DNA from: Bacteroidota bacterium
GTDB lineage: Bacteria; Bacteroidota; Bacteroidia; NS11-12g; UBA955
Assembly (NCBI GenBank): GCA_018333525.1
Contig: JAGXTF010000076.1
Coordinates: 57,424-121,423, forward strand
Length of the DNA stretch: 64,000 nucleotides
Direction: 5' to 3'
Of this stretch, positions 5,118-26,212 are shown one piece after another. The notes beneath the pieces are model-generated. The model was not told the DNA's origin, did not search any database, and saw only the letters and a program-made list of their open reading frames with translations. How positions within the stretch are numbered: position 1 is the first letter of the stretch; each line of letters starts with the position of its first letter. Both the position numbers and the translations under genes were made by a program.

Positions 5118-5254
5118 AATAATACGAATATAACATATTCTATTGTTGATTAATTAAGTCATATTGATTGAAGAAACTTTACAATGGTTATTTGTCGTTG
5201 GTGGTCCTGCGCTACGCCTGCAGGACATGAGCACCAACGACGGGTTTCGCGGTA

Positions 5255-5995
5255 TTAAAGTGCTTCCAGCATTTTTACAACCTCAGCGCGGCGCCGGGTG
5301 CTTACAGGAATGGTTGTATTGTCTTTCATCAATAAATGTCCACCATCTGTTTTTACAAATTCCGTTATGAATTTTGTATTTACCAAATGGCTTTGGTGTA
5401 CCCTGAAAAATCCCAAAGGAGTTAATATATCTTCATATTCCTTCAGGGTTTTGGTTACCAGTAATTTTTTATTATTTGTAAAAAAGAATTCGGTGTAATT
5501 CACACTGCTTTCGCACCGGATGATTTCATCAATATTTACGATATGAATTTTATCCAGAGTGTTCAGTGCCAGGCGTGTTTGTGGCTTATTCCCGGATTTT
5601 AATGTTTCATTTAGAAAATTATACTTGCTGCTTTCATTTTTTTTCTGATTTCTGGCCTTATCCAATGCCTGAACCAATTCATCCGGATCTACCGGTTTCA
5701 TCAGATAATCGATAGCTGCATAACGAAATGCCTTGATTGCATGGGCATCATAGGCTGTAATAAATATAATGCGAAATGGGATTTGGGGTAGAATATCCAA
5801 CAAATCAAAACCGCTTCCATCCTGCATTTGAATATCCAGAAAAACAATATCAGGACTGGTATTTCGAAGTAACCTCGCTCCTTCCACCACACCAGATGCC
5901 TCTCCTATTATTTCAATATCCGGTGCATAGGTTTCCAAATCCTTTTTCAGTGTATTTCTCGCTTGTTCCAGATCGTCAATTAAGATGGCTTTCAT
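5255..5995 (-). CDS. Two-component response regulator, LytTR family (REC + LytTR DNA-binding domain).
   Basis: REC domain 'MKAILIDDLEQ...FLDIQMQDGSGFDLL'. C-terminal LytTR domain 'IHIVNIDEIIRCESSVNYTEFFF...FFRVHQSHLVN'. Its start overlaps the stop of the upstream kinase gene. Confidence 0.85.
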   Translation of the reverse strand: MKAILIDDLEQARNTLKKDLETYAPDIEIIGEASGVVEGARLLRNTSPDIVFLDIQMQDGSGFDLLDILPQIPFRIIFITAYDAHAIKAFRYAAIDYLMKPVDPDELVQALDKARNQKKNESSKYNFLNETLKSGNKPQTRLALNTLDKIHIVNIDEIIRCESSVNYTEFFFTNNKKLLVTKTLKEYEDILTPLGFFRVHQSHLVNTKFITEFVKTDGGHLLMKDNTTIPVSTRRRAEVVKMLEAL

Positions 5996-9203: not shown

Positions 9204-11516
9204 ATGATTCGAAGAATCACCAGACATTTTCGAAAACGCTATCGCATTTATCTTGCTGTAATCCTTATTTTTTCTATCTGGTATATCTTTTGTCTGCCCA
9301 CTAAACCATTTAACGGACCTTACAGCACCGTTCTGTATGATAGAAATGGACAAATGCTGGAGGCAAGAGTTGCTAAAGACGGGCAATGGCGTTTTCATTC
9401 TTCACACCAGTTTCCGGAAAAACTGAAGGTTGCAATTATCGAATTTGAAGATCGTGGGTTTTACAAGCATCACGGCATTAGTATGCGGGGCATTGGAAGG
9501 GCCATTTCACAAAACTGGCGCAACAAAAGAATGGTAAGCGGAGGAAGTACTATTACCATGCAGGTGGCAAGAATGTTATGCAAACACAAAAGCAGAAATA
9601 TTTTCAATAAAATCCATGAGATGATTATCGCCACAAGGTTGGAAATTCGGTATTCCAAATCTGAAATTCTGGATATGTATTTGTCCAATGCTCCTTTCGG
9701 GAATAATGTTGTGGGTGCTGATGCTGCGGCCTGGCGTTATTATGGACGAAATGCCAACAAACTCAGTTGGGCAGAATGCGCAACCCTGGCCGTACTTCCA
9801 AATGCTCCCGGATTATTATACCCGGGCAAGAATCAAATAAAGCTAACCGCAAAAAGAAATCGGCTATTAAAAAGACTATTCGATAATAAGCAATTGGATG
9901 CCACACAAATGGAACTGGCATTTTGCGAAAAAGTACCCGGAAAACCATTGCAATTATTGTCTGCAGCACCTCATTTGATGGCCACATTAATGCAACAAAA
10001 CGGAAGAGGAAATACCTATGAAAGTACCGTAGACAAAAGTCTTCAGGATCAGGTTTTGCGCATTGCCCAAAGACACCATCAGGTACTTTCCGGAAATCAG
10101 ATTATGAATGGTGCCGTATTGGTAAGTTCTACAAAAACAGGAGAAATTCTGGCGTATATCGGAAATATTTCTGAGCGAAATTTGCAGGAAGGTAGTGAGG
10201 TAGATTGCGTATTAGCGGCCAGAAGTTCGGGAAGTATATTAAAGCCATTACTGTATGAAAGCAGCATGGAGGCAGGTATCATCACTCCAAAAACCCTGTT
10301 ATATGATGTACCCAGTCAATTTGGAAATTATGCGCCCAAAAATTTTAACAAAAAATTCGAAGGTGCAATTCCGGCAAACCAGGCACTGAGTCGCAGTCTG
10401 AATATTCCATTTGTTTTGTTGCTCAATGATTATGGTAACGCGCGTTTTAGAGACAGAATTTACAATTGGGGTCTCTCACATATTCAAAATAATGCAACCC
10501 ACTACGGACTAACATTAATTCTCGGAGGTGCAGAAGTTACTTTGATGGAAATGACCAATGCGTATAGAAATCTCGGTGCTGTAGCTTCCAATCAAAGCCC
10601 TTCAGAATTGCAAATTCTACGCAATAAAAAATCTTCAAAAAAATACCCGAAATGGAATCGGGAATGTGTATTGGCAACTTTGGATGCCCTGACAGAGCTG
10701 AACAGACCGGATGAAGAAGGCAATTGGAAATTGTTTGAATCCGCCAGAAAAATTGCCTGGAAAACAGGTACAAGTTTTGGATTTCGCGATGGTTGGGCAA
10801 TTGGAATTACACCGGAATATACAGTTGGTGTTTGGATCGGAAATGCAAACGGAGAAGGGCAGGCAGGTCTCACCGGCAGTAAAGCAGCAGCACCATTAAT
10901 GTTGGATATATTTTCAGTTTTGCCCGGGAAAAATGCATGGTTCCCACAGGGATTTCATATGAAAAAAATTGCGATTTGTTCGGAAACCGGAAATCCCGCT
11001 TCCAGCAGTTGTCCGCATGTATCGGAACAATTATTTCCGGAATCCTGTGAAAATGTAAAACCCTGTAGAATGCATCAAATTTTACATTTAAGTCCGGATA
11101 AAAAATACCAGGCAAATACCAATTGTTTTGCAGTAAATGCGTTGCAATCGGATACATTTTTGCTCCTACCACCTTTGGTGTTGCGTTACTATAAAGAACA
11201 TCATATGATTCAAGATGTTCCGGAATACTTCCCGGGCTGCGGCATTACAGAAAATAATATTCATATCATTTACCCGTTGTCGGGGTCTCAAATTATTTTA
11301 TCCGACCCAAAATCCAATGCTGCGGGTGAAATGGTATTAGAAATTACACATCGCGATTCAGAAGCAGAAGTATATTGGCATCTGGATGAAAACTATATGG
11401 GTTCAACAAAAACCATTCATCAAATGCTGGCACATCCTGACCCGGGAAAACACAAGTTAACTGTTACGGACAATCTCGGACAACACAGCAGTGTGCAATT
11501 TACCATTGCACCTTAA
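9204..11516 (+). CDS. pbpC: Penicillin-binding protein 1C (transglycosylase + transpeptidase).
   Basis: GT51 motif 'GGSTITMQVARML'. Transpeptidase motifs SxxK ('SGSILKP') and KTG ('WKTGTSFGF'). Length and a C-terminal PBP1C-type domain fit. An A2M gene lies upstream. Confidence 0.8.
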   Translation: MIRRITRHFRKRYRIYLAVILIFSIWYIFCLPTKPFNGPYSTVLYDRNGQMLEARVAKDGQWRFHSSHQFPEKLKVAIIEFEDRGFYKHHGISMRGIGRAISQNWRNKRMVSGGSTITMQVARMLCKHKSRNIFNKIHEMIIATRLEIRYSKSEILDMYLSNAPFGNNVVGADAAAWRYYGRNANKLSWAECATLAVLPNAPGLLYPGKNQIKLTAKRNRLLKRLFDNKQLDATQMELAFCEKVPGKPLQLLSAAPHLMATLMQQNGRGNTYESTVDKSLQDQVLRIAQRHHQVLSGNQIMNGAVLVSSTKTGEILAYIGNISERNLQEGSEVDCVLAARSSGSILKPLLYESSMEAGIITPKTLLYDVPSQFGNYAPKNFNKKFEGAIPANQALSRSLNIPFVLLLNDYGNARFRDRIYNWGLSHIQNNATHYGLTLILGGAEVTLMEMTNAYRNLGAVASNQSPSELQILRNKKSSKKYPKWNRECVLATLDALTELNRPDEEGNWKLFESARKIAWKTGTSFGFRDGWAIGITPEYTVGVWIGNANGEGQAGLTGSKAAAPLMLDIFSVLPGKNAWFPQGFHMKKIAICSETGNPASSSCPHVSEQLFPESCENVKPCRMHQILHLSPDKKYQANTNCFAVNALQSDTFLLLPPLVLRYYKEHHMIQDVPEYFPGCGITENNIHIIYPLSGSQIILSDPKSNAAGEMVLEITHRDSEAEVYWHLDENYMGSTKTIHQMLAHPDPGKHKLTVTDNLGQHSSVQFTIAP

Positions 11517-12602: not shown

Positions 12603-15100
12603 TGGCGAACAATGATTTTGGTTTGTCCAAAAGTATTTCCCGAAGCGTATCGCAAAAAATAAATTCCCGACGGATATTGTGTTACAGACATTTCAATGAT
12701 TCCGTCTTTATCTACATTTATTCTGTTCAACCGTTTACCATTCAAATCCAATAAAGCTATTTCTCCGCGAAAAGATTCATTTTTGAACATCAAGGTTTCG
12801 GATACCGGGTTTGGATAAACCTGAAATTGCATTTGCACTTTTTTGCGTACATTTTTTTCATCTTCCAGATTGTTGTTTTCAGCAAACTCAAAAGTAGAAT
12901 AATTTCTATTGGTCGAATCCGGTGAAACTGAATCCGGATAGTGGATGTACTCCTTTAAATACACGGTAGTGATTGGTTTAACCTCCCAATTTTTAAGATT
13001 CATTTTTTGAAAACCGCAATCCGCAATAAAAGTCATTTCCGTAATGGTTCTTAAAATAATGTGATTCAAAAATTCAACCTCATATTGATCTGTGGTAGGT
13101 TCCATATGGTGGTCGCCAATTCCGCTATGGTCTGTAAGAAAAATGGTTTTTCCATTTGTGAGAAGTGCTACATTTCGCATCAGATATTCCAGTGATGCAT
13201 CATATGTACCGCTTGCAATTATCGGAACCATTCGAATCCCTTTTTCGGCGGATTGGATCACCGCATCTCTGAAAATTTTCTGATATTCATCTCCGGATGC
13301 AGGTGGCTCATCCAAAACATGAAATGCAATTCGCATGCTTCCCTCCCTCCAGTTTAGCTGATTCACCGCAGCATCCAATGCCAGTTCTACACTCTCTTCC
13401 CCGCCTTCATTTGCATTTTGACTGCTGATAAATTCGATGGTTTTTTTCGTATCCTTATCGATATCCGATTTTAATACTTTGTACGAACAGCCAGGTGCTT
13501 TATAAAATACGGCTCCCATAGCGAGATCCAAACCCTGATTGCTTTCGTGTAAAGTATTTATTATTTTGTTCAGGTCTTTCTTTAAAAAATCAATTTCATC
13601 TGACATAGAGCCGGTTGCATCTACTATCCACACAACATCTGCTTTTTTATTTGCACCGCATTTTACATCAAAAACTGCACGATTCATTCCCTTAGAAAAA
13701 AGCTTAGGTTCAGATATCCATTGTTCTGAATCTCCAAATTTTACCAATACTTGCTTTGGTGCTTCATCCTCCTCTCCGAATTTCGGATCCAGCCATAACT
13801 CACATTTTCCTGTATTGTCGGTGACTGCTTTATAAGCAGATTTATTGCCACTTTTCAATTCCACTTTAGCTCCCTGAAGTGCTTCACCACGCGTATTCAT
13901 TACCTGCACACAATAGCGATTTTTAGCACATAGTTCCCATTTGCTGCCTGTTTTGAATAATTCATTTGAGTCTGCTGACCACAAATCCCATTTTGCGAAA
14001 TCATCGATAATAGCTGCAGTTAGGGATCCATTAGCAGGTGCGCTTTTGTAAAAAAGCGGAACCGTTTGGTTGCCTGTATTATTCCCGTTTTGCTGTTGCA
14101 TAAATCTGGGATGTTGGTAGTACATAGAGACCCCACCCCAATCCGGACACTTCAAAGGACGGAAAGGTTGAATCCCGGGTGGTACACACCAGGAAATGGA
14201 TGAAGACAATCCATGTTGGGTCCATTCTTTTGTCTGAAAACTGAAATTATTAAAATATTTTATTGAAAATCTTCTATGAATATATCCCGCAATCAGAGAA
14301 AATTCGCTTTGTTTATTTCCCCAATTATACTGATGAAACATCCCGGCAATCGTTTGATTGTTTTCCCATATCAGACCATAATGGATGAGATAATTGCTGT
14401 GAGTCATGATCACCGGACTCAAATAATCCGAATTGAATCTGCTGTGATCCAATTGAAACTTATAACTTCCGTTTATTGAAAATTTTCTTTGAAACATTGG
14501 CATCAGGTAATTCCACGATTGCGAATCTTTCTGAATCACATTCCATGCAGCAATTCCAAATGAAAATTTATCATTATACAGCACAGCACCTGTATTAAAA
14601 TTCAATTGGTGCATTCTCATTTTCAATTCTGCCGGGTTGTTCATTTTCAGTTGCTCATTCAATTGAATAAATTCGTTGGAAAGCAAGTTGAGCTTCGCAA
14701 AAGAGTATCCGGGTTGTACGGCTATTTGTATGAATAACCTGCGGTTGATTGGCAATAAATAATTATAGGTTGTCTGAAATAAATAAGATTGCTGTAATGA
14801 ATTTTTTTCCCTTTGAAAATGAACGGCAAGCGCACCACCAAGCCAGGGCAGATGTTGATCCCATGACATATCCAATTTATTATTGCCATTTAAATTGGTT
14901 CCAAAATTTGAAATCACCCTTCCCGCAGCACCATAATCACAACGTGCAGTGCCGGCAAATGCTGGATTCCAGGACAAAGGTTGCAATATAAATGGTGTAT
15001 TGTGTCCAAGTTGCGCTTTTGTAAAATGAACAAAAAATAACAAAAATAAAAACAGAAATAAAATGCGGGAATTAATTCCAGAGAAAAGCGTATTTTTCAT
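12590..15100 (-). CDS. Large T9SS-secreted mosaic protein: PorP/SprF-like N-terminal region + carboxypeptidase-regulatory-like domain + vWA domain + type-A T9SS C-terminal sorting domain.
   Basis: A signal peptide is followed by 'AQLGHNTPFILQPLSWNPAFAGT', which resembles the PorP/SprF family start (aQQDPqFSqY...NPAyaG). The vWA MIDAS motif is 'VVWIVDATGSMSDE'. The C-terminus 'VYPNPVSETLMF...LLDLNGKRL...SGIYFLR...KIIV' matches the T9SS CTD (TIGR04183-like). Confidence 0.6.
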   Translation of the reverse strand: MKNTLFSGINSRILFLFLFLLFFVHFTKAQLGHNTPFILQPLSWNPAFAGTARCDYGAAGRVISNFGTNLNGNNKLDMSWDQHLPWLGGALAVHFQREKNSLQQSYLFQTTYNYLLPINRRLFIQIAVQPGYSFAKLNLLSNEFIQLNEQLKMNNPAELKMRMHQLNFNTGAVLYNDKFSFGIAAWNVIQKDSQSWNYLMPMFQRKFSINGSYKFQLDHSRFNSDYLSPVIMTHSNYLIHYGLIWENNQTIAGMFHQYNWGNKQSEFSLIAGYIHRRFSIKYFNNFSFQTKEWTQHGLSSSISWCVPPGIQPFRPLKCPDWGGVSMYYQHPRFMQQQNGNNTGNQTVPLFYKSAPANGSLTAAIIDDFAKWDLWSADSNELFKTGSKWELCAKNRYCVQVMNTRGEALQGAKVELKSGNKSAYKAVTDNTGKCELWLDPKFGEEDEAPKQVLVKFGDSEQWISEPKLFSKGMNRAVFDVKCGANKKADVVWIVDATGSMSDEIDFLKKDLNKIINTLHESNQGLDLAMGAVFYKAPGCSYKVLKSDIDKDTKKTIEFISSQNANEGGEESVELALDAAVNQLNWREGSMRIAFHVLDEPPASGDEYQKIFRDAVIQSAEKGIRMVPIIASGTYDASLEYLMRNVALLTNGKTIFLTDHSGIGDHHMEPTTDQYEVEFLNHIILRTITEMTFIADCGFQKMNLKNWEVKPITTVYLKEYIHYPDSVSPDSTNRNYSTFEFAENNNLEDEKNVRKKVQMQFQVYPNPVSETLMFKNESFRGEIALLDLNGKRLNRINVDKDGIIEMSVTQYPSGIYFLRYASGNTFGQTKIIVRHYSE

Positions 15101-15318
15101 TTCTTATTTCAACTATGAAACGCTATGGAGAAAAAATGTTACACTTCAGTTTGACCTGGAATTCAGGAAAAGCACCAAGCGCAACTCTTAAACTACTTGC
15201 CGCAAAATGGAATCTATGAAGATTTAGAAATTACATTAAAGTAACTTACTTTCTATTTTAAGCGCTAAAAACGCAGAATTATAGAAACAATTTAATTGTT
15301 GATACCGTTGCGGCTATC

Positions 15319-20964: not shown

Positions 20965-21168
20965 GATATACAAAGTAGCGGCTTACAGCTGCAATCCCCG
21001 AAGTAGGCACTACCGACAGGTTGTTTGTAATTGTCGATTATCGTGAACTTCCAACATCGAACTTCGAACATCTGACATTGAACATGTCTGACTGACATTT
21101 TTCTTTACATTTTTTTACCACAATATTTGACAATCTGAAAAAAGGCTGTTAAATTACCCACCGAAACG

Positions 21169-22615: not shown

Positions 22616-23434
22616 ATGTATCTGAAAGAAAATATCAAATTGTTGCGCAAACGGCGCAAAAGAAGTCAGGAAGATGTTGCCAAATCCCTGAACATTACAA
22701 GGTCTGCCTACAATAGCTATGAAAATGGTGTTGCAGAACCCGGCATTACGGTATTGTTAAAACTTGCTGATTTTTATCAGGTAAATCTGGATAAACTCGT
22801 AAAGATAGATTTGTCTACTCTTGCAGAAAGTCAATTGTCGCAATTGGAAAAAGGATTCGATATGGACCTCAGCGGAACGCGACTTCGGGTGCTCGCTACA
22901 ACGGTTTCTCCGGAAGACAATGAGAATGTGGAATTGGTTTCTGTAAAGGCAAGGGCCGGATATACAACCGGATACGCGGATCCGGATTTTATTAAAGTAT
23001 TGCCAGCATTTAATTTGCCTTTTTTATCTCCAAATAAAAAATACAGGAGTTTTCCAATTCTGGGAGACAGCATGCCTCCTGTTGCAGAAGGAGCTTTTGT
23101 AACCGGAGAATATGTACAAAACTGGAATTTAATTCGCAATGGAAATCCTTATATTATTGTAACCGCGGATGATGGAATTGTTTTTAAAGTAGTGTACAAC
23201 CGCATAGATGAAGATGGTACCATTTTACTGTGCAGTACAAATCCATTGTACAAACCTTATACAGTAAAAGTGAATGATGTACTTGAGGTTTGGAAGTTTG
23301 TAAATTATATCAATCCAAAATTTGAAGAACCTCAAAACACGGAAAGCGATGATGTTGGGCCTGCTCTGCGTGTAATCCAGCGTGAGATAGGAATGATCAA
23401 AGAAAAAGTGATGGCAATCGAAGAAAAAATATGA
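22616..23434 (+). CDS. XRE-family HTH transcriptional regulator with a C-terminal S24 (LexA/CI-like) autopeptidase domain.
   Basis: HTH_XRE 'LLRKRRKRSQEDVAKSLNITRSAYNSYENG'. S24 Ser motif 'FPILGDSMPP' and the downstream Lys region 'IVFKVVYN'. It starts 13 bp after the exonuclease gene, so the two are probably co-transcribed. Confidence 0.7.
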   Translation: MYLKENIKLLRKRRKRSQEDVAKSLNITRSAYNSYENGVAEPGITVLLKLADFYQVNLDKLVKIDLSTLAESQLSQLEKGFDMDLSGTRLRVLATTVSPEDNENVELVSVKARAGYTTGYADPDFIKVLPAFNLPFLSPNKKYRSFPILGDSMPPVAEGAFVTGEYVQNWNLIRNGNPYIIVTADDGIVFKVVYNRIDEDGTILLCSTNPLYKPYTVKVNDVLEVWKFVNYINPKFEEPQNTESDDVGPALRVIQREIGMIKEKVMAIEEKI

Positions 23435-23631
23435 TGTTATTACAGGAACCTCCAAAAAAATTCAAATTGCAATCCGCATTGATCAAAAATGCTTATTCTG
23501 AATTGTTTGTTTCCGGAACTCCGAATTTAACAAGTAATTTTATTCCACAGGAAAAAGAAAAACACGAACCCAAATCTCTCAAGGAAATTATGATGAAAAT
23601 GGGAGTTTTGGAAGAAATAAAAAGTATATAA
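23431..23631 (+). CDS. Small hypothetical protein (66 aa); doubtful.
   Basis: Its ATG overlaps the stop of the XRE/S24 gene (ATGA). There are no recognisable motifs, and it lies directly upstream of the tandem repeat array. Confidence 0.25.
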   Translation: MMLLQEPPKKFKLQSALIKNAYSELFVSGTPNLTSNFIPQEKEKHEPKSLKEIMMKMGVLEEIKSI

Positions 23632-23640
23632 GCGAGGGAT

Positions 23641-24145
23641 GTGGGAAGTTAAACGTGAGAAGTGAGATGTTAAAAGCAAACAGCTATTCGAAGACGTGTA
23701 CCGTTGTTGGTGTTTACTTTCAGCTTCTATGTTTGTCATCGATTTTGTTATACGGCTGAAAGTCACCAACAACGCCAAGCCTTTGAGTATGTGGGAAGTA
23801 AGACGTGAGACGTCAGAAGTTAAAAACAAACAGCCTTTCGACGACGAGTCCTGTTGTTGGTGTTTACTTTCAGCTTCTATGTTTGTCATCGATTTTGTTA
23901 TACGGCTGAAAGTCACCAACAACGCCAAGCCTTTGAGTATGTGGGAAGTAAGACGTGAGAAGTCAGAAGTTAAAAACAAACAGCCAATCGAAGACAGGTA
24001 CCGTTGTTGGTGTTTACTTTCAGCATCTTTGGATATCGCAGATTTTGTTATTCGGCTGAAAGTCACTAACAACGCAGGGTCCAGAACAAAATTTCAATGT
24101 TAAATTTCCAATTGTCATGCGGCCGAAATTCACCAATTACGCATC
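23641..24145. repeat. Tandem array of 3 full + 1 degenerate copy of a 150-bp repeat, each carrying a conserved imperfect 19-bp inverted repeat (hairpin).
   Basis: Units begin with 'gtgggaagt' at 23641, 23791 and 23941, giving a period of exactly 150 bp. The 3' 90 bp of units 1 and 2 are identical and contain GTTGTTGGTG(ttta)CTTTCAGC ... GCTGAAAG-TCACCAACAAC with a ~30-nt loop. The 5' ~60 bp are diverged. A degenerate partial copy follows at ~24091-24145. Confidence 0.8.
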
Positions 24146-24146
24146 A

Positions 24147-26144
24147 TTACTTTGTTTTCTGTTTTAATTGTTTCAGCATTTTTACCGCAGTTTTTTGATT
24201 CTTTTTAACGGTTTTTTGGTTTTCCCTAATCGCTTTTTTTACGCCTTTCATATATTCCTTCTGATCCTCTCCGCGACCTTTGTCCAATACCTTTTCCAGC
24301 TTCATCTCCCATAACAGCCAACCCATTTCTTCCCCCCCTACCAAATCCATGGAATATTTCAAATCATCTACCACATCCAAAATCGGCTTTTTCCATTCCT
24401 TTGTCCATTCATATTCCTCTTTTCTATATGCAAAATACTCATTTGAAAAAGCATTGTAATCTTCTATAAAATCAGAATTGGATTCTGTATAAGATTTCTT
24501 TTTCATCCATAAGTTTACCTGACGGGAATACAATTTATGTATCGCTTTGCTTTGTTTGGTGAATGACGTAAAAAACATGGCAAGACTGTCTGAAAGTGGC
24601 GAACCATTCATAAATAAAACAGAATCATGCATGAGTTTATGTTGCATCATGGAATCCCGCAAGTAGCCCGGTATATAATCCAAATCGTCTAATCCCTGAA
24701 ACATTCTGGCATGTACCCGGCTCAAAATCTGGTCCATATCTTCCTGATTGTTTTCCCTAACTGCACGAACCATAAAAGCATGATCGTCCCATATTTTGTA
24801 TATACTTTTTTGCAATTTATAAATGCGGTCTTTCATCGCTTTTAAGCTGTCTTCATTGTTTGCAATTACAGCATCTATCAGAGGCACTTTCTGTTCCTTC
24901 CCATGCCCCGGAGCAGCCCAGGCAGCCCTTTTAAAAGAATTCTTCATGGTTGCATTGTACATTTCATGGCTGGTCTCTTCAAATTTCACAATTTCATTTA
25001 CCACTTTAATAACAGCCTTTACTGAACGCTTGATTCTGGATTTATCTGCCTTGCATTGCTGCAACATTTTTTTGTTGTGGTCATTGCAGGTTTTAAATTT
25101 CTTTTTACGCAATGCTGAAAGTTCGGCACGCTGATTTTTGGCCATTACCAAGGATGAATCATAAAAAAGCAAAGCTGTATCATGCCAACGAATCACCAGA
25201 TTTAACTGCTCTTCATCATCCCCATTTTCAGCAATCATTTCGTTCAGGTTTTTCACACCCAGCATTCCATATGAATTTGCAGCATCCAAATAATCCCTCT
25301 TATTCCATTTTTGTGCATGAAAGCCGGAAACTATCCATTGATCTTCCTCAGATAATTTCGCATATGCGTCCTGATCTGTGAAATCTTCCGGTTCATTTAT
25401 TTTCGAAATGCTTTGGCCTTCACCACGAAAGTGAGCGGAATCCAAACTCCAGCTATTTGAGCTGATGGTATGTTTCAACAGTTGCCAAATTGGATCCGCA
25501 GAAAGATGGTTGTAACTGAAATATTCACCATTTCTAAAGAAATACTGCGAATTGGGTTGGGAATAAAATTTAGGTTTGAAATAATATCGCTGCACTTTTC
25601 CGAAACTTAAAATCTTCATTAATTTTCCTTTAAAAGTTTGTCTTACCCATTCAATATAACCTGCATCCCACGTTGCGTCGAACAAACACCATGTTCCGTT
25701 TATTTTTACAGCGTTCCAGGCGTGGGTGCTGAAATAAAGTCTTTCTTCCAAATCTTCTCCCGGATGTTTGATATATCCGAATACCGTAACTGATTCCAGC
25801 CCTGCGTTTCTGCATAGTGCATTGAACAAATCTGCATATCCCAGACAAATGGCTTTTTTCTTGCGGATGATTTTATTTACATCTACCCTTTTAAAATCAT
25901 TGACCATTACTTTATGGATGTCATAAGAAATATTATGGGTAACCCAGGAGTATATCGCACAAACTTTTTCACTATCGTCACTAAGATCTTTTGTGAGTGC
26001 TTCTGCCAGCTTCACCGGATTTGCATTGAATCTTGCCGGGAGTTTTTTGTGGCATTCCAAAGACTGCGATACCTTTTGAGATTGACCAAATGCCGCGCCT
26101 GTAATAAATAGACTTACTAAAATTACAAAAGAAAAGTATTTCAT
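24147..26144 (-). CDS. Secreted transglutaminase-like domain protein with a lysine-rich coiled-coil C-terminus.
   Basis: Signal peptide 'MKYFSFVILVSLFITGAAFGQ'. Transglutaminase-like core with Cys in 'KKKAICLGYADLFNALCRNAG' and His/Asp in 'THAWNAVKINGTWCLFDATWD'. C-terminal K/E-rich tail. Confidence 0.55.
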   Translation of the reverse strand: MKYFSFVILVSLFITGAAFGQSQKVSQSLECHKKLPARFNANPVKLAEALTKDLSDDSEKVCAIYSWVTHNISYDIHKVMVNDFKRVDVNKIIRKKKAICLGYADLFNALCRNAGLESVTVFGYIKHPGEDLEERLYFSTHAWNAVKINGTWCLFDATWDAGYIEWVRQTFKGKLMKILSFGKVQRYYFKPKFYSQPNSQYFFRNGEYFSYNHLSADPIWQLLKHTISSNSWSLDSAHFRGEGQSISKINEPEDFTDQDAYAKLSEEDQWIVSGFHAQKWNKRDYLDAANSYGMLGVKNLNEMIAENGDDEEQLNLVIRWHDTALLFYDSSLVMAKNQRAELSALRKKKFKTCNDHNKKMLQQCKADKSRIKRSVKAVIKVVNEIVKFEETSHEMYNATMKNSFKRAAWAAPGHGKEQKVPLIDAVIANNEDSLKAMKDRIYKLQKSIYKIWDDHAFMVRAVRENNQEDMDQILSRVHARMFQGLDDLDYIPGYLRDSMMQHKLMHDSVLFMNGSPLSDSLAMFFTSFTKQSKAIHKLYSRQVNLWMKKKSYTESNSDFIEDYNAFSNEYFAYRKEEYEWTKEWKKPILDVVDDLKYSMDLVGGEEMGWLLWEMKLEKVLDKGRGEDQKEYMKGVKKAIRENQKTVKKNQKTAVKMLKQLKQKTK

Positions 26145-26212
26145 AAACTGACGTGAAAATATTGCAGAATGTTCTACTTACAATAGGTATAACAAAAAAG
26201 CATAACTGTTAT

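Follow-up and report, generated by a model that had tools for sequence, protein, structure and literature searches.

A tandem repeat array in a 64-kb window of DNA from a Bacteroidota bacterium (64,000 nucleotides of contig JAGXTF010000076.1; coordinates refer to this window unless another locus is named) was analysed. It is probably a local tandem expansion of a lineage-restricted, non-coding, modular intergenic repeat which is dispersed in the source genome and resembles REP, BIME and BOX elements in its behaviour. Repeats of this dispersed, structured type have, to our knowledge, been described extensively in Proteobacteria and Firmicutes, and hardly at all in Bacteroidota. The repeat is of interest for its combination of a heptamer tract with a large bulged hairpin in one unit, for its growth as direct tandem copies, and for its consistent position and orientation beside stop codons. 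With this family, one can ask in a defined setting by what means elements of this kind spread when no transposase is visible, and whether heptamer tracts between genes play a role.

Tandem Repeats Finder reported an array at 23639-24075 with a period of 150 nt, 2.9 copies, 89% matches, no indels and a score of 699. A repeat search placed in-register 150-nt copies at 23639, 23789 and 23939, with copies 2 and 3 showing 92% and 81% identity to copy 1, and a partial copy 4 at 24112-24142 that corresponds to the last 31 nt of the hairpin (its 3′ arm), at a spacing of 67 nt after copy 3. As a whole, the array consists of three exact 150-bp units (23639-24088) followed by a decayed, truncated copy up to 24142. 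An initial annotation of the window had described the same three units and decayed fourth copy, with starts (23641 and so on) shifted in phase by 2 nt. The parts of the array are as follows.

23639..23788, plus strand: repeat unit 1, with heptamer tract, linker, hairpin and tail (Tandem Repeats Finder, repeat search and alignment).
23789..23938, plus strand: repeat unit 2, 92% identical to unit 1, with differences only in the first 64 nt.
23939..24088, plus strand: repeat unit 3, 81% identical to unit 1, with conserved arms and diverged loop and tail.
23638..23672, plus strand: heptamer tract of unit 1 (GAWGTNN, period 7; period-7 scan).
23788-23822 and 23938-23972, plus strand: heptamer tracts of units 2 and 3, the equivalents of the unit 1 tract.
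24089..24142, plus strand: terminal copy, truncated and decayed, with tail, loop and 3′ arm and without the outer 5′ arm (repeat search and alignment).

The array sequence is base-for-base the same in two other public assemblies of the source organism; a third assembly of the same organism (L003, Logan SRR6213120 contig) terminates within the array. Neither the 22-nt arm nor the 25-nt unit start occurs anywhere else in the window, and no such occurrence was expected by chance.

Each unit is composed of an imperfect heptamer tract (GAWGTNN, four copies), a conserved linker and a 79-nt bulged hairpin. The heptamers have the forms GAAGTNA and GACGTGA (e.g., GAAGTAA GACGTGA GAAGTCA GAAGTTA) and read TNACWTC on the strand of the flanking genes. 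The period-7 scan returned 0 tracts in 20 shuffles of the window. The linker is AAAYRCAAACAGCC-NTTCGAAGACG, in which an A-rich part, AAAAACAAACAGCC, is followed by NTTCGAAGACG. Local palindromes had been put forward as a trait of the 5′ module, which was not borne out, since the palindrome GACGTgagACGTC is confined to unit 2 and it is the period-7 pattern that is conserved. A comparison of units 1 and 2 gives 12 differences; the first 64 nt contain all of them (19% divergence; hypergeometric P = 1.9e-5), and the last 86 nt are identical. The claim that substitutions fall mostly in the 5′ 60 bp is accurate for units 1 and 2 but not for unit 3, in which 9 of 30 loop and 10 of 13 tail positions are also changed, compared to 1 of 43 nt in the arms.

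The hairpin has 20 pairs (C23702-G23774 etc.), with an outer helix of 11 bp and an inner one of 9 bp, separated by a 5′-side bulge of 3 nt and capped by a 30-nt loop, conforming with the imperfect stem and ~30-nt loop that had been proposed. Its free energy is −29 to −30 kcal/mol, corresponding to z-values of about −5.7 and −6.0 on the two strands relative to dinucleotide shuffles. The window contains three full copies.

23702..23774, plus strand: hairpin 1, with 11 bp, bulge TTT, 9 bp and a 30-nt loop (covariance model, 96.3 bits).
23852..23924, plus strand: hairpin 2, equal to hairpin 1 except for the outermost pair, U.G (94.5 bits).
24002..24074, plus strand: hairpin 3, with one arm change of C to T giving G.U on the plus strand, and a loop diverged by 30% (90.7 bits).

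Folding and covariation, which the initial annotation had suggested as a check, were assessed on 13 full hairpins from five arrays, i.e., the window array and four others described below. Standard pairs occupy 96.5% of the 259 pair cells; with partners displaced by 1-3 columns, the share is 23-58%. At pair 18-66, nine copies have GC and the other four AU, without any intermediate, and UA is replaced by CG in one copy; RNAalifold, which was not given the pairs, predicted the same 20. All 13 hairpins score between 75 and 106 bits with the covariance model (R1). The sparseness of the covariation is attributed to the young age of the repeat family. In the commoner subtype, the loop contains a third arm-like segment that is able to pair with the 3′ arm. 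We conclude that the stem is what selection or the copying mechanism preserves, given that the arms are near-invariant and pairing is kept, while loops, spacers and tails drift. A dispersed repeat lacking conserved structure was the finding named beforehand as speaking against a structured array; the repeat is indeed dispersed, but its structure is conserved.

Dispersal is evident from at least three further arrays of the same hairpin in the source genome. Two of them lie ~50 kb past the right end of the window on the same 167.9-kb JGI contig (locus L156, 10082-10352 and 14225-14735): the first consists of two hairpins and a truncated copy, and the second, 4 kb further, of a six-heptamer tract and four hairpins at a spacing of 108-110 nt. 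The third (L163, 16905-17250), 1.8 kb before the left end of the window, repeats the geometry of the window array, with a pair of units spaced by 150 nt and a truncated copy following at +67. A fifth array, on a separate metagenome contig (L096), has other genes around it and lies beside fdhD; its hairpin is diverged, its full unit is ~80% identical to that of the window, and it ends in a truncated terminal copy. The arrays outside the window flank unrelated genes, namely purB, a gene for an extracytoplasmic function (ECF) sigma factor, bipA, an alpha-2-macroglobulin-like gene and fdhD. Arrays hold two to four units, and all 13 hairpins are in direct orientation. The spacers differ in kind, being GAWGT heptamers, ACAAGCY heptamers or absent. 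The truncated terminal copy is preceded by GCARRGTCCCAGAWAAA in four of the five arrays, and a terminal module of the same type as in the window is present in L156, L163 and L096. The terminal copy of the window has no significant fold.

The L156 arrays were reached by using the plus-strand open reading frame (ORF) that runs across the window array as a protein query against a library of representative proteins, where it matched P0122 (95 aa), which is another array read as an ORF. No further array was obtained from the minus-strand ORF across the array, from a 1324-aa six-frame concatenate or from exact cluster look-ups. Scanning of metagenomes with the pattern GCTGAAAGTN{0,3}CACCAACAAC gave 72 loci, 71 of which were single chance matches, including six soil contigs that share 28 of 29 nt inside the coding region of an unrelated high-GC gene; L096 was the sole true relative. 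Because the contig of the source sample itself was not among these matches, the scan is uninformative on copy number in the source genome. Searches of plasmid and phage collections (blastn) and of IMG/VR (pattern scan) did not yield an array match. Rfam, searched at gathering and permissive thresholds with the window and the L156 arrays, returned only chance microRNA-like matches, and ARAGORN detected no tRNA. Over ~99 kb of the source genome, four arrays with 11 full hairpins, one lone heptamer tract and one lone hairpin were counted. When the loci that had been found through their arrays are set aside, ~2 further arrays remain in ~98 kb; as a rough extrapolation, this suggests dozens or more per genome.

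To compare the locus with relatives, 80 loci (one genome per species) were anchored on the LexA-like protein encoded beside the array (52-90% identity), and five loci of the closest metagenomic relatives (89-91% identity) were added. The array and the transglutaminase-like gene next to it are both absent from every relative examined, and blastn, Tandem Repeats Finder and the covariance model detected no related repeat in these 85 loci, ~0.9 Mb in total.

In the window, the array occupies a 515-bp gap between converging genes and lies downstream of both.

23431..23631, plus strand: 66-aa ORF that overlaps the stop of the helix-turn-helix (HTH)/S24 LexA-like gene, ends at a distance of 8 nt from the array and is conserved in relatives.
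24147..26144, minus strand: transglutaminase-like gene, convergent with the array, with its stop codon at 24147-24149, 6 nt past the last repeat arm.

The transglutaminase-like gene had been taken to follow the array; as it is encoded on the minus strand, the array is located downstream of it, not upstream. The gene beyond the truncated array end is convergent in five of five arrays, and the distance from the last arm to its stop codon is 6, 9, 13 and 40 nt in four of them. The fifth array (L156, 14225-14735) abuts a stretch of ~600 bp (14736-15300, minus strand) with four short ORFs in shifting frames, which looks like a frameshifted gene remnant. Three arrays are situated between same-strand genes, one between converging genes and none between diverging genes. 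This agrees with REP elements generally, most of which follow an ORF and separate genes that are unidirectional or convergent (PMC3733652).

How the family spreads, and what effect it may have on RNA, we infer as follows. A non-autonomous element would spread to new intergenic sites between gene ends by way of some enzyme or a recombination route. Local growth could then proceed by unequal recombination or replication slippage between units, and gene conversion would homogenise the hairpin part; gene conversion over this part is our proposed reason for units 1 and 2 being identical over 86 nt and diverged over the other 64. Two converging transcription units end only 6-8 nt from the array, which is for this reason probably part of 3′ untranslated RNA made from both strands. 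In such RNA, the hairpins would act at most as passive 3′-end barriers or insulators, as has been proposed for REP and BIME.

Several observations weigh against a dispersed repeat of this kind. No transposase and no member of the RAYT-type family (IS200-like tyrosine transposases) is present among the genes called over ~120 kb of the source genome, and because of this it is dispersal alone that points to mobility. No pair of an empty and a filled site was found for the array by itself, as the array and the transglutaminase-like gene are absent together at the window locus; no target-site duplication was seen by inspection. The copy number derives from ~99 kb of one genome, sampled in part because it bears arrays. 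Evidence on the folding strand is mixed. G.U cells in the main hairpin number 15 on the plus strand and three on the minus strand, reflecting few independent events, whereas the truncated terminal copies of L156 and L096 form a local hairpin of ~40 nt for which the adjacent gene's strand gives the more stable fold (−21.7 and −21.4 versus −13.7 and −10.4 kcal/mol). Taken from the counts of G.U versus A.C, the folding strand is equivocal. Finally, the consistent adjacency to stop codons could indicate a function rather than tolerated insertion.

Such a function is the core of the strongest alternative, according to which the repeat is an RNA cassette that is transcribed with the adjacent gene and whose hairpins and C-rich, G-poor heptamers (TNACWTC) form a portable module for 3′-end formation, termination or protein docking, e.g., for Rho or a single-strand RNA-binding protein. 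All five arrays, and the lone tract after a dld-like gene, are oriented alike with respect to the neighbouring gene. The terminal copy lies 6-40 nt past the stop codon in four of five arrays, and the order on the gene's strand is always stop codon, hairpin(s), GGCTGTTTGT and C-rich heptamers. [quoted passage not shown] Against this, no T-run follows any arm, the terminal copy in the window has decayed and does not fold, and the outer helix of most copies contains a C.A mismatch when read on the strand of the adjacent gene. Moreover, close relatives with the same genes lack the family, which implies that the flanking genes do not need the repeat. On balance, this alternative is considered unlikely. 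A bolder version would combine it with mobility: the repeat would be a self-spreading functional 3′-end cassette of a Bacteroidota lineage, located in the 3′ untranslated region, in which a stem-loop barrier and a TNACWTC tract loading Rho or another single-strand RNA-binding protein make up a portable terminator or insulator, its strength being set by the number of units. Although we hold this to be distinctly unlikely, it would, if true, supply a defined mechanism for heptamer repeats between genes of Bacteroidetes, Cyanobacteria and Beggiatoaceae that are so far unexplained.

An array of small RNA (sRNA) genes, another reading offered by the initial annotation, is weakened by the present data. 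Each unit would encode one plus-strand sRNA, in which the heptamers form a single-stranded "seed" and the hairpin confers stability. A conserved hairpin joined to a variable 5′ module would suit a tandemly duplicating sRNA gene family, and both the excess of G.U cells on the plus strand and the hairpin stability (z of about −5.7) are in favour of it. However, neither a sigma-70-like box nor a Bacteroidetes-type TAnnTTTG box is conserved before the units; the sole two matches, both without a −33 partner, are in the loops of units 1 and 2 of the window. The units have no terminator-like T-run after the hairpin on either strand and no Rfam match, and the kind of spacer varies from array to array. 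At least two further arrays in ~98 kb, by the rough estimate given above, would also be unusual for sRNA genes. A tandem set of sRNA genes is therefore quite improbable. The direct tandem repeats of a structured non-coding unit are likewise reminiscent of type III toxin-antitoxin RNA repeats (ToxI), which were considered and rejected: units have no promoter or terminator of their own, no toxin gene follows on the same strand, the gene beyond the array being convergent in five of five cases, and many loci are present per genome.

A protein-binding array belonging to the exonuclease/LexA-like operon, for instance with operator-like sites for the HTH-S24 repressor, was implied by the position of the repeat directly behind this operon. 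The array does start 8 nt past the last ORF of the operon, its arms are inverted repeats, and a second, lone heptamer tract is found across the operon at 21045-21100. But the operon is conserved without the array in the 85 related loci, other arrays lie beside the unrelated genes listed above, and the 7-nt period is out of register with the helical phasing expected for binding to duplex DNA. An operator array is thus very improbable and, judged by these comparisons, the array is not a regulator specific to the exonuclease/LexA-like operon and has no bearing on its biology.

That the array is a gene, or the degenerate pseudogene, for a repetitive protein (181-aa minus-strand or 135-aa plus-strand ORF) can be practically discounted, in agreement with the earlier view of both ORFs as artefacts: two of six frames are open across most of the array and a weak Pfam match to Methyltransf_4 was obtained (E=1.2e-4, no stretch passing alone), but unit differences are spread 10/12/12 over the codon positions, a stop in unit 1 interrupts the plus frame, a search of 5.8 billion proteins gave no homologue of the minus-strand ORF, the one relevant match of the plus-strand ORF in 1.84 billion representatives is the array of the same genome mentioned above, and the frames are lost in L096 and L156.

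The reading as a dispersed, non-coding repeat was compared with known repeat systems. Like REP/BIME and REPIN elements, the repeat is high-copy, extragenic, hairpin-forming, non-coding and lineage-restricted, with copies dispersed in the extragenic DNA of one genome. It also shares with REP/BIME the clustering into arrays with a variable number of units and the location shortly after an ORF, with unidirectional or convergent genes on either side (PMC3733652). As in REPINs, inverted arms (22 and 19 nt, 30 nt apart) make one long hairpin. Differences concern the defining traits of REP. The unit hairpin measures 73-79 nt (20-bp bulged stem and 30-nt loop), whereas a REP is an imperfect palindrome of 20-40 nt; all hairpins here are direct, without the alternating orientation of REP/BIME; and the unpaired GTAG/CGTC tag of REP (PMC3733652) has no equivalent, as copies of the L156 type start with CGTCGTTGGTG on the opposite strand, where it is paired, and window copies with CGTTGTTGGTG. 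In addition, each unit here carries a heptamer tract, and no RAYT gene accompanies the family among the genes called. Membership in the CGTC-tagged REP superfamily was considered, as some copies read CGTCGTTGG on the other strand, and was rejected on the grounds of stem and loop size and of the paired tag. The family behaves like REP/BIME, REPIN and BOX elements but lacks the unit size, alternating orientation and terminal tag that define REP. The REP/BIME-like reading of the initial annotation fits in this sense of "works like", given that the family is structured, intergenic and dispersed over several loci of one genome.

In its architecture the repeat is likened to BOX of Streptococcus pneumoniae (boxA-(boxB)n-boxC; ERIC, RUP and Correia elements are similar), which is built of distinct end modules around an internal module whose copy number varies, has a predicted stable structure, is dispersed between genes and lacks its own transposase. 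The heptamer module at one end, two to four hairpin units and a truncated terminal copy with GCARRGTCCCAGAWAAA in four of five arrays correspond to this plan. BOX belongs to another phylum, and in the present family a heptamer tract and a truncated hairpin make up the ends; the likeness is one of architecture, the Rfam searches having returned chance matches only. We know of no description of a stop-codon placement rule for BOX. The arms could also serve as the terminal inverted repeats of a miniature inverted-repeat transposable element (MITE); a flanking duplication was not visible by inspection, and the lone hairpin at 5190-5245 shares the outer helix alone.

The heptamer tracts have counterparts of their own. 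Cyanobacterial short tandemly repeated repetitive (STRR) heptamers are intergenic direct repeats, and direct repeats of the heptamer TAACTGA are found between genes in Beggiatoaceae, Cyanobacteria and some Bacteroidetes (PMC4679880). TNACWTC, as read here on the strand of the genes, resembles TAACTGA; common to both are a period of 7 nt, an intergenic position, a fixed orientation to the flanking genes, and presence in one genome with absence from the shorter intergenic region of close relatives. The tracts here differ in being imperfect and short (four to six heptamers, with ACAAGCY in one array), in forming one module of a larger unit with a hairpin, and in not lying directly before start codons.

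Two further candidates were rejected. The array is no CRISPR, as was correctly stated initially, since its would-be spacers are mutually homologous and the array has an exact period of 150 nt. Integron attC sites (RYYYAAC...GTTRRRY) do not match either, because the arms GTTGTTGGTG...CACCAACAAC have GTT at the 5′ and AAC at the 3′ side on both strands and no ORFs lie between the units.

Two possible traces of the family were found elsewhere in the window.

21045..21100, minus strand: lone heptamer tract (AWGTYNG, six copies) followed by ACAAACAACC..TCGG, between the dld-like gene and the exonuclease gene.
5190..5245, minus strand: lone hairpin GTCGTTGGTG-ctcat-GTCCTGC...GCAGGAC-CACCAACGAC (covariance model, 29.1 bits, E=2.3e-5).

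The lone tract resembles a stranded 5′ module of the repeat family. The same intergenic stretch (20965-21100) also contains a weak GTAG-initiated hairpin (GTAGCGGC...GGCACTAC) just past the stop codon. As the lone tract is opposite in orientation to the main array, the operon is flanked by inverted remnants of the family, which is probably a coincidence. The lone hairpin begins 10 nt past the stop of a gene on the minus strand (5255-5995) and shares only the outer helix with the family, its inner helix being different and its loop short. It may represent a related type of element or the ancestral form.

The small ORF between the LexA-like gene and the array is conserved after the LexA-like gene together with its C-terminal motif, which identifies it as a genuine gene that does not belong to the repeat. 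In loci with at least 72% identity of the LexA-like protein that extend past this gene, the order is LexA-like gene, small ORF and pdhA, with a short gap before pdhA. Homologous ORFs of 57-66 aa (L004, 3989-4170; L157, 10826-11011; L161, 3489-3668) keep the motif ..EPKSxKEIxxKMGL.. and have no Pfam match; the small ORF may be an uncharacterised third gene of the exonuclease/LexA-like operon. The gap between it and pdhA is a variable spot, holding the array and the transglutaminase-like gene in the window (23632-26152), two other genes in L005 (6990-8170), coding for a 220-aa protein and a DinB-like 166-aa protein, and ~60-240 bp in all other relatives.

Other repeats were observed in the loci compared. 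L034 (5244-5752), from another Bacteroidota genome, contains an unrelated 131-bp tandem repeat (3.9 copies, 95% matches) that starts with CCAGTNN heptamers and is located directly after a stop codon, upstream of the LexA-like gene of that genome; similar heptamers are present in L058 (7110-7290). This suggests that arrays of a heptamer tract plus a longer unit recur in this Bacteroidota group with different sequences. A distant relative (L070, 681-856) has a 40-bp tandem repeat of 4.2 copies (ACGCAAACCCAACCTGATAGGTTAGCCCGGGCACGGGCTG). Just downstream of a pirin-like gene in L156 (15300-15400), another GC-rich palindromic repeat (GGTTGAGCGGAG...CTCCGCTCAACC, duplicated) was seen, whose sole Rfam match is a chance microRNA-like one.

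In practical terms, the repeat breaks assemblies, as in the L003 contig that ends inside the array, and it yields spurious ORF calls in metagenome annotations: gene callers annotate "proteins" of 95-154 aa across arrays, at 11114-11488 in L002 and at 10001-10308 and 14216-14678 in L156.

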